Source: Chloroflexota bacterium (GTDB lineage: Bacteria; Chloroflexota; Limnocylindria; P2-11E). From it: 64,000 nt of DNA. Position numbers and translations under genes: made by a program. The stretch lies in the NCBI GenBank assembly GCA_005883625.1, contig VBDU01000080.1:41453-105452 (forward strand), read 5' to 3'. Each line of letters begins with the position of its first letter. Within the stretch, counting starts at the first letter, position 1. Shown here one piece after another: positions 45,706-46,396 of this stretch. The notes under the pieces are model-generated. The model did not search any database. It was not told the DNA's origin and saw only the letters and a program-made list of their open reading frames with translations.

Positions 45706-45984
45706 CTAGCGGCGCGTGATCTCGCGCGCGTACTCAGGGAAGTAGCGCTCGATCGTCGAAAGGTCGAACTCACGGAGGATCGACGTGTTCGGCTCGCGCG
45801 CCAGCAGGAACGCGAACGAGCGGCGCACCAGGACCCCGACGTCGCCGCCGCCGTAGCGCGCGTGCTCGGCTCGCGAGATCCGGACGCGATGGCGCGTCAC
45901 GGTCGGTTCGTTGATCGTCACGTCCGCGGACCAGCCGGCGGGATCCTCGAGGATCGCGACCGCGAGCCGCTCAGCGGAGGGCAA
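45706..45984 (-). CDS. Small hypothetical protein, possible TTG start overlapping the accB-like stop
   Basis: C-terminal 90 aa of ORF 45706..46269 has non-artefact composition (..ILREFDLSTIERYFPEYAREITRR). Confidence 0.3.
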   Translation of the reverse strand: MPSAERLAVAILEDPAGWSADVTINEPTVTRHRVRISRAEHARYGGGDVGVLVRRSFAFLLAREPNTSILREFDLSTIERYFPEYAREITRR

Positions 45985-46396
45985 TGACGAAGAGCGGCTG
46001 TCCGTACTCGACGGGCGACCCGCCCGCGATGAGGACGTCCTTGATCTCGCCGTCGGCGGGCGCGCTGATCTCGGCGACGTGGCCGAGCGATTGGATGCCG
46101 CCCAGCACGTCGCCACGCGCGACGGCATCGCCGGCCGCCCACTCGCGCGCCGCGCTGAACACGCCCACCGTCGTGGCGTGGACCCGTTGCGTGCGGACCT
46201 CCTTCTTCGTGGGGGCGGAACCCCCCACACCGCCCCCTTCGCGGCTGCCGCCGCCGCTATCGCGACCAAGGGGGGCTCTGCGCGTCACCTTCACCGACAG
46301 ACCGTCGGACTCGACCTCGATCGTCGTCGCGGCGGACCCCTCGACCAGGCGAAGCAGGTCGTCCACGAGGCCGAGGACGTGGTCCGGCTCGCTCAT
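45971..46396 (-). CDS. BCCP-like biotinyl-domain protein lacking the biotin-attachment lysine (EAMK replaced by QSLG)
   Basis: Aligns to accB (GDVLGGIQSLGHVAEI versus GDVIGLIEAMKLFNEI). Directly upstream of accA-accD. Confidence 0.7.
   Translation of the reverse strand: MSEPDHVLGLVDDLLRLVEGSAATTIEVESDGLSVKVTRRAPLGRDSGGGSREGGGVGGSAPTKKEVRTQRVHATTVGVFSAAREWAAGDAVARGDVLGGIQSLGHVAEISAPADGEIKDVLIAGGSPVEYGQPLFVIALR
46209..46237. repeat. G/C hairpin repeat (GTGGGGG-CGGAAC-CCCCCAC, then ACCGCCCCC) inside the accB-like linker
   Basis: 7-bp stem. Confidence 0.5.

Follow-up and report, generated by a model that had tools for sequence, protein, structure and literature searches.

A conserved lysine-less paralogue of the biotin carboxyl carrier protein encoded beside accA in Candidatus Limnocylindria

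In acetyl-CoA carboxylase (ACC), the conserved lysine of the biotin carboxyl carrier protein (BCCP, or AccB) shuttles carboxybiotin from biotin carboxylase (BC) to carboxyltransferase (CT). The stretch of DNA analyzed here, 64,000 nucleotides with a G+C content of 71.5%, from a Chloroflexota bacterium (referred to herein as the window), encodes beside its carboxyltransferase genes an AccB-like protein that has a glycine at the position of this lysine. The locus raises the question of what a carrier without its carrying residue might contribute to the enzyme, and whether it can be likened to BADC, the non-biotinylatable BCCP-like protein of plants.

The lysine-less gene and its predicted operon

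The lysine-less gene is predicted to encode a protein with an N-terminal domain, a linker, and a C-terminal domain, which are located in the window as follows:

45971..46396, minus strand: coding sequence of the lysine-less BCCP (AccB) paralogue, 141 amino acids, ATG start at 46396, beginning MSEPDHVLGL
46280..46396, minus strand: N-terminal domain, residues 1 to 39, a helix and a beta-hairpin as in AccB (AF2 model and BCCP alignment)
46193..46279, minus strand: flexible Gly/Ser/Arg-rich linker, residues 40 to 68 (low pLDDT; varies among relatives)
45974..46192, minus strand: C-terminal biotinyl-domain fold, residues 69 to 141, without the biotinyl-lysine and without the thumb (AF2 and Foldseek)
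46079..46093, minus strand: hairpin-tip motif QSLGH in place of EAMKL, with glycine at the biotinyl-lysine position (alignments)

The list of open reading frames (ORFs) extends this gene to a GTG at 46444; the ATG at 46396 was chosen as the start, which is also the start of most relatives. This ATG overlaps the stop codon of accA as ATGA, and by this overlap the lysine-less gene is predicted to be part of an accD-accA operon. The first-pass annotation had placed it upstream of accA-accD; it actually lies downstream, the order on the minus strand being accD, accA, and the lysine-less gene. The surrounding genes, by descending coordinate, are these:

49145..49915, minus strand: biotin protein ligase, birA-type, about 250 amino acids, no HTH, first gene of the conserved run (PF03099, PF02237)
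48285..49148, minus strand: DegV-family (fatty-acid-binding) gene (PF02645, 244.6 bits)
47396..48319, minus strand: accD, carboxyltransferase beta, with a Zn ribbon; start uncertain, 48247 to 48319 (TIGR00515, 374 bits)
46393..47394, minus strand: accA, carboxyltransferase alpha, immediately 5' of the lysine-less gene (NF004344, 383 bits)
45706..45984, minus strand: orf92, a conserved small ORF of 92 amino acids with a TTG start, overlapping the end of the lysine-less gene by 14 nucleotides (nt)
44263..45201, minus strand: fabD
43904..44263, minus strand: glyoxalase/VOC-fold gene (Glyoxalase), between fabD and accC, with abutting stop and start codons
42534..43907, minus strand: accC, biotin carboxylase
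41687..42136: fabZ
34645..35901, minus strand: fabF, directly 5' of the canonical accB
34187..34645, minus strand: canonical AccB with EAMKL and thumb, 152 amino acids, directly after fabF; the real carboxyl carrier of the window

Along the run birA-degV-accD-accA-X-orf92 (where X is the lysine-less gene), neighboring genes are separated by gaps or joined by overlaps of 1 to 14 nt wherever the starts are clear, and the arrangement points to co-translation of the lysine-less gene with accA. A divergent membrane ORF of 143 amino acids sits between orf92 and fabD. A scan of 45100..50600 for promoters and terminators found none, as expected at 71% G+C.

When 76 Limnocylindria-type loci were compared by tblastn, the order birA-degV-accD-accA-X-(orf92)-fabD-accC was found on every contig long enough to carry it, and in several loci (L050, L059, and L062) fabF-accB lies a few kilobases beyond the operon. 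The placement of a BCCP paralogue with the carboxyltransferase genes, to which the first-pass annotation had drawn attention, is thus kept class-wide, and a sister group (described below) places the gene between accA and accC. The small gene orf92 is present at the same place in about 45 of the 77 Limnocylindria-type loci; searches of Pfam, NCBIfam, and PDB sequences gave no match to it, and it is a possible additional partner of the ACC operon.

Several neighboring genes have features of their own. The birA-type gene has no in-frame ATG, GTG, or TTG from 49795 to 49915, where the upstream Gmad2-domain gene ends, and a start at 49795 would cut off a conserved N-terminal part; the gene may have a non-standard start codon or contain a local error in its sequence. 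The degV gene is kept between birA and accD in most of the Limnocylindria-type loci covering that stretch, a position that suggests a link of acyl-chain sensing or handling to ACC expression. Models of the AccA family match the window AccA only from residue 40 onward, and the two-helix N-terminal region is not recognizable in it. In the E. coli ACC tube, this two-helix region of AccA links the ring layers, and the N terminus of the window AccA hints that the quaternary arrangement differs in this lineage. The glyoxalase-fold gene was called at the same place in locus L001; in the tblastn comparison, where it served as a positional marker only, it was matched at that place in only a handful of loci. 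Elsewhere in the window, a selenocysteine tRNA gene (16395..16486, minus strand; Rfam RF01852, 75.2 bits) implies selenoprotein synthesis in this organism.

Comparison with canonical AccB in sequence and fold

A six-frame motif scan of the window found a single proper EAMK site, at about 34306 on the minus strand, inside the canonical AccB. BLASTP aligned the lysine-less protein with this AccB over 48 ungapped residues (35% identity, 32.3 bits), and in this alignment GIQSLGHVAEI falls on LIEAMKLFNEI, which puts a glycine on the biotinyl-lysine; the first-pass annotation had likewise described a second biotinyl-domain protein with QSLGH where EAMKL should be. The methionine and lysine of the hairpin are invariant in 37 canonical BCCPs. 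The further statement that the protein aligns residue for residue with accB holds for about the last 50 residues but not over the full length, where there is a deletion of 5 to 6 residues in the thumb.

The relationship nevertheless extends over nearly the whole carrier. A family profile built from 21 members was aligned by hhalign with a profile of the 37 Lys-bearing BCCPs (99.9% probability, E value of 5.9e-33, 131 columns), and the alignment spans columns 8 to 142 of the BCCP profile, the N-terminal helix and hairpin included. The missing thumb, a gap of 5 to 6 residues opposite TPSPDAKAF in E. coli AccB and SPSPQTQPY in the window AccB, is the sole structural difference seen in this profile alignment.

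For structure prediction, the 21-sequence alignment was too shallow (pLDDT of 40.5), and an alignment of 95 sequences was used. The resulting AF2 model has a pLDDT of 86.8 overall and of about 98 in the C-terminal domain, with a helix at residues 5 to 20, strands at residues 25 to 30 and 33 to 38, and a low-confidence linker at residues 40 to 68. In Foldseek searches, the C-terminal domain matched the BCCPs of E. coli (1BDO; TM score of 0.82) and Pyrococcus horikoshii (5GUA; TM score of 0.91, rmsd of 1.4 Å), and the top match of the family profile in a search of PDB sequences was E. coli BCCP in the BC-BCCP complex (4HR7). The lysine-less protein is a full-length AccB homologue, consisting of an alpha/beta/beta motif, a flexible linker, and a barrel-sandwich domain.

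With canonical AccB (E. coli AccB; 1BDO, 4HR7; TIGR00531) it shares this three-part architecture, homology over the full length, and a location in an acc/fab cluster, but it lacks both the biotinyl-lysine and the thumb and scores below the family cut-off. The TIGR00531 BCCP model gave 44.9 bits, against a curated cut-off of 115.2 bits, and the Pfam Biotin_lipoyl model gave 34.7 bits (cut-off, 22.1). Other barrel-sandwich domains (lipoyl domain, GcvH, and HlyD/RND adaptor) did not give the best match; the scores for GCV_H (13.4 bits) and HlyD_3 (18.1 bits) stayed below their cut-offs, and the family has no conserved lysine to serve as a lipoyl-lysine. The P. horikoshii-type BCCP (5GUA, 2EVB) gives the best superposition of the C-terminal domain and, like the lysine-less protein, has no thumb; unlike it, the P. 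horikoshii-type protein keeps the biotinyl-lysine and is a real carrier. Some family proteins are labeled in their sources as "acetyl-CoA carboxylase biotin carboxyl carrier protein," "biotin carboxyl carrier protein," or "biotin/lipoyl-containing protein"; automatic annotation of these genes with the first of these names is routine, and it is wrong for metabolic reconstruction.

Conservation of the family and lysine-less carriers in other lineages

A homologue search over about 5.8 billion proteins returned 466 matches, and the best 120 of the 466 (59 to 98% identity) were examined. Glycine is at the lysine position in all 120 (QSLGH in 49, KSLGH in 30, KSLGQ in 28, and a few variants in the others), and the site follows the pattern Q/K/T-S/T-L-G-H/Q/K/R among them. 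When one genome per GTDB species was scanned, 80 loci were obtained, of which 77 (L002 to L078) have the lysine-less gene and are labeled, nearly all of them, as Candidatus Limnocylindria or Chloroflexota; ordinary Lys-bearing BCCPs adjoining accC are encoded in the three loci that are most distant (L079 to L081). The genome-locus alignment comprised 76 sequences (L001 to L077 without L062, which is truncated), and every one of them reads (I/V)-x-(S/T)-L-G at the site. A survey of relatives for lysine-less accB paralogues, suggested in the first-pass annotation, thus found them in 76 GTDB species genomes, where the gene is intact (43 to 98% identity) and has the same operon position throughout. 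Because glycine is present in 120 of 120 homologues and in 76 species genomes, QSLGH is not a sequencing slip. All family members come from uncultured organisms (metagenome-assembled genomes [MAGs]).

Conservation is uneven along the protein. Rough Nei-Gojobori estimates of dN/dS for 54 coding sequences were 0.31 and 0.25 for the N- and C-terminal domains, respectively, and 0.97 for the linker; by these estimates, both folded domains are under purifying selection and the linker is drifting. Linker length and sequence differ among relatives. About 50 residues are invariant in the 21-sequence alignment, including L98-G99-G100-I101, L104-G105, and P128-VEYGQ-133, and there is almost no variation in the hairpin LGG(I/V)Q(S/T)LG. 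These data bear on the view that the gene is a decaying accB duplicate that has lost its lysine and has no function. Such decay would fit the low score against the BCCP model (44.9 versus 115.2 bits) and the loss of both lysine and thumb, but a decaying gene would hardly be kept intact at a constant operon position in 76 species-level genomes of 43 to 98% identity, with dN/dS values of 0.25 to 0.31 for the folded parts but of about 1 for the linker, with some 50 invariant columns that include the hairpin, and with a start that overlaps the accA stop codon. We regard decay as scarcely credible; a pseudogene is contradicted by the conservation and the selection estimates and is largely refuted.

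The same alignments were used to look for a lysine that is present but shifted, which would have undermined the earlier claim that the protein cannot be biotinylated. There is no conserved lysine anywhere in the family, with lysine in no more than 48% of members in any alignment column. The idea that the protein still carries biotin or lipoate, on another residue or on a shifted lysine, could draw on the lysine three residues before the canonical site in about half of the close relatives (KSLGH and KSLGQ) and on the biotin ligase gene that heads the operon. The residue at that spot is, however, glutamine in the window protein and in half of the family, and since no column exceeds 48% lysine, the lysine of KSLGH is not a conserved alternative. 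The residue at the hairpin tip itself is glycine in all members. A remaining carrier function is very improbable, and the claim that the protein is not biotinylatable agrees well with these alignments. Because of the glycine at the lysine site and the lack of a conserved lysine, the protein is predicted to be unable to carry CO2.

A second lysine-less group, with the motif D/E-V-L-G-I/V, shares 33% identity with the window protein over the full length. Its operon in a Candidatus Limnocylindrales MAG (GCA_039924985.1), and likewise on a 1.06-Mb contig, has the order accD-accA-X-accC-fabZ-...-fabF-AccB-fabH-fabG, and the gene after fabF encodes a canonical AccB with thumb and EAMKL. In this sister group, dead and live carriers coexist in one fatty-acid operon, and the dead one is flanked by catalytic ACC subunits. 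A subfunctionalization is plausible, in which a static structural BCCP would go with accA and accC and a mobile catalytic BCCP with fabF.

Gene position also bears on where in the enzyme the protein might act. It could be an accessory subunit on the CT side that stabilizes or docks AccA and AccD, outside the BC-BCCP subcomplex, much like the epsilon subunit of actinobacteria. In Limnocylindria, the gene always lies immediately 3' of accA, with predicted translational coupling, and ring or tube contacts may differ with an AccA that has no recognizable N-terminal helical region. Against this, the AccB-type N-terminal motif and the BCCP domain, which in E. coli contact BC and other AccB chains, are both retained in the protein, and accC adjoins the lysine-less gene in the sister lineage and in other phyla. 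The epsilon subunit AccE of actinobacterial acyl-CoA carboxylases, described in work cited in PMC11926652 as a small non-catalytic "glue" for holoenzyme assembly, is alike in being a small non-catalytic subunit; it is unlike the lysine-less protein in that its sequence and fold are unrelated and its target is the CT beta subunit of a carboxylase of the two-subunit type. We consider a role on the CT side unlikely, though worth keeping in mind.

Searched with a profile, 1.84 billion cluster representatives yielded 5,362 matches. Among the best 150 of the 5,362, the critical column holds glycine in 54, arginine in 15, asparagine in 9, and lysine in 48, which are to be read as examples and not as frequencies, since the query profile favors glycine. 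Five lysine-less examples were located on contigs:

L082 (8001..8399): AVLGI protein, small membrane-anchored ORF, accC, nusB, folD
L084 (8001..8429): efp, x, KAMGL protein, small membrane ORF, accC, nusB, folD
L086: efp, EVLGI protein, xseA
L087 (6001..6702; 31% G+C): dnaE, tandem two-domain RALGV protein, accC, asp23...nusB
L088 (6001..6456): prmC, ESMRL protein, accC

Four of the five are at or beside the classical accB slot by accC, two of them (L082 and L084) with an intervening small ORF. These genes in the accB slot belong to unrelated lineages. In a neighbor-joining tree of 135 representatives, lysine-less sequences fell into at least eight clusters among Lys-bearing ones; the tree is poorly resolved, and separate origins cannot be counted from it. 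We tentatively propose, as a possibility about which we are rather doubtful, that lysine-less dead-carrier BCCPs form a widespread, undescribed class of subunits of bacterial heteromeric ACC, with multiple origins and often in the accB slot by accC or accA, and that the ratio of live to dead carriers sets assembly or flux.

Likeness to plant BADC and candidate roles in ACC

BADC has been termed "unique to the plant htACCase" (PMC11926652). BC and BCCP are both binding partners of plant BADCs, whose role has been argued both ways, as an inhibitor and as a BC-BCCP "glue" (PMC11926652, PMC12706156). A bacterial lysine-less BCCP was not found described in the literature searched, and this absence applies to that literature only. 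For comparison, BADCs were retrieved with a metagenomic algal BADC and with an Arabidopsis fragment that served as bait only; one retrieved Arabidopsis-type protein (P0413) contains a stretch near-identical to this fragment. The retrieved sequences, from Arabidopsis, Raphanus, Hibiscus, Glycine, and green algae, are annotated under names such as "biotin/lipoyl attachment domain-containing protein." Glycine is at the lysine position in all 118 BADCs that were aligned (DQFGT in 80, EQLGT in 14, HQLGT in 9, and other motifs in the rest).

The likeness of the window protein to BADC is considerable. Each is a homologue of BCCP that combines an N-terminal helix/hairpin motif with a linker and a biotinyl fold, both have glycine for lysine, preceded by leucine or phenylalanine in BADC and by leucine here, and both coexist with a canonical BCCP. 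The window protein is as similar to the algal BADC (41% identity over 69 residues, 54.7 bits) as to its own AccB (32.3 bits); with the Arabidopsis-type BADC it shares 36% identity over 50 residues (33 bits). Unlike BADC, the window protein is bacterial, is encoded in an operon beside accA, and has no transit peptide, and BADC has a long basic insertion where the lysine-less family has the thumb deletion. The signature of the BADC clade ([DEH]Q[FL]G[TK], a basic insertion before the hairpin, and a C-terminal PSFH tail) was not found in the window protein, which has only the glycine and the preceding leucine in common with it. A specific evolutionary link between BADC and the lysine-less family was considered and rejected, because the BADC profile is closer to canonical BCCPs (E value of 3.7e-27, 138 columns) than to the lysine-less family (E value of 1.2e-14, 69 columns). 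Since there is no special kinship between the profiles, the lysine was most likely lost independently in the two, and their resemblance is probably due to convergence and not to common descent; of the replacements that preserve the turn, glycine at the hairpin tip is probably the easiest. With regard to the earlier suggestion of a bacterial BADC counterpart, the architecture, the replacement of lysine by glycine, and the coexistence with a canonical BCCP speak for it, whereas membership in the BADC family does not survive the profile comparison. The Limnocylindria gene product is likely a bacterial, operon-encoded counterpart of BADC that evolved independently.

What might such a protein do? 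From architecture and gene order, on which every functional statement here rests, we think it fairly probable that the lysine-less protein is a non-catalytic BCCP paralogue and an ACC subunit, entering the BC-BCCP assembly as a dead carrier. It has kept the AccB-type N-terminal tethering motif and the body of the domain and has lost the lysine. In E. coli AccB, the first approximately 30 residues form an alpha/beta/beta unit that has been proposed to oligomerize centrally in the active ACC tube, tethering the carriers (PMC11160672). The lysine-less protein may enter the assembly through its AccB-like N-terminal motif and BCCP-like domain surface, by binding to biotin carboxylase and/or by co-oligomerizing with AccB N termini, and carrier positions would then be filled by a dead carrier without turnover. 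The effect could be that of a structural glue that stabilizes the BC-BCCP-CT assembly or that of a brake that leaves fewer productive carriers. In either case, the protein would occupy the same functional slot as plastid BADC, reached independently.

A regulatory decoy outside the enzyme would also make use of an AccB-like protein, by sequestering BirA or PII or by repressing acc transcription. A birA gene is present in the same operon, an interplay of apo-AccB and PII is known in E. coli, and the AccB N terminus alone down-regulates accBC there (PMC11160672). The ligase of the window, however, is short (about 250 amino acids) and has no DNA-binding domain, BirA and PII recognize the Lys/biotin hairpin, which is replaced here, and a repressor acting through its N terminus would need no strong conservation of the whole C-terminal domain. 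We therefore rate a decoy function as quite improbable.

Some observations also count against the dead-carrier subunit that we prefer. The thumb, which NMR work has reportedly implicated in the contact between plant BCCP and BADC, is absent here. Conservation of the hairpin tip goes beyond what a simple loss of function would require, which hints at a specific new binding role; the new hairpin LGGIQSLGH varies so little that a specific contact is suggested, for which, as a matter of speculation, the entrance to the BC or CT active site is the obvious candidate. The co-conserved orf92 and degV, finally, stand outside the model.

In the BADC literature, control of the committed step in fatty-acid synthesis by non-biotinylatable BCCP-like subunits is specific to plants. 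This plant-only picture would change with a bacterial family that shares the architecture and the lysine-to-glycine replacement, is encoded in acc operons, and is kept across a class of Chloroflexota; plant BADC is known, and the bacterial lysine-less BCCP family would be what is new. It would also provide simple, operon-encoded, intron-free systems in which the mechanism, brake versus assembly glue, could be reconstituted and dissected. The similar proteins in other lineages suggest that the principle is general, and, if the proposal of a widespread class of dead carriers is true, plant BADC would be one case of a general solution and not a plant invention.
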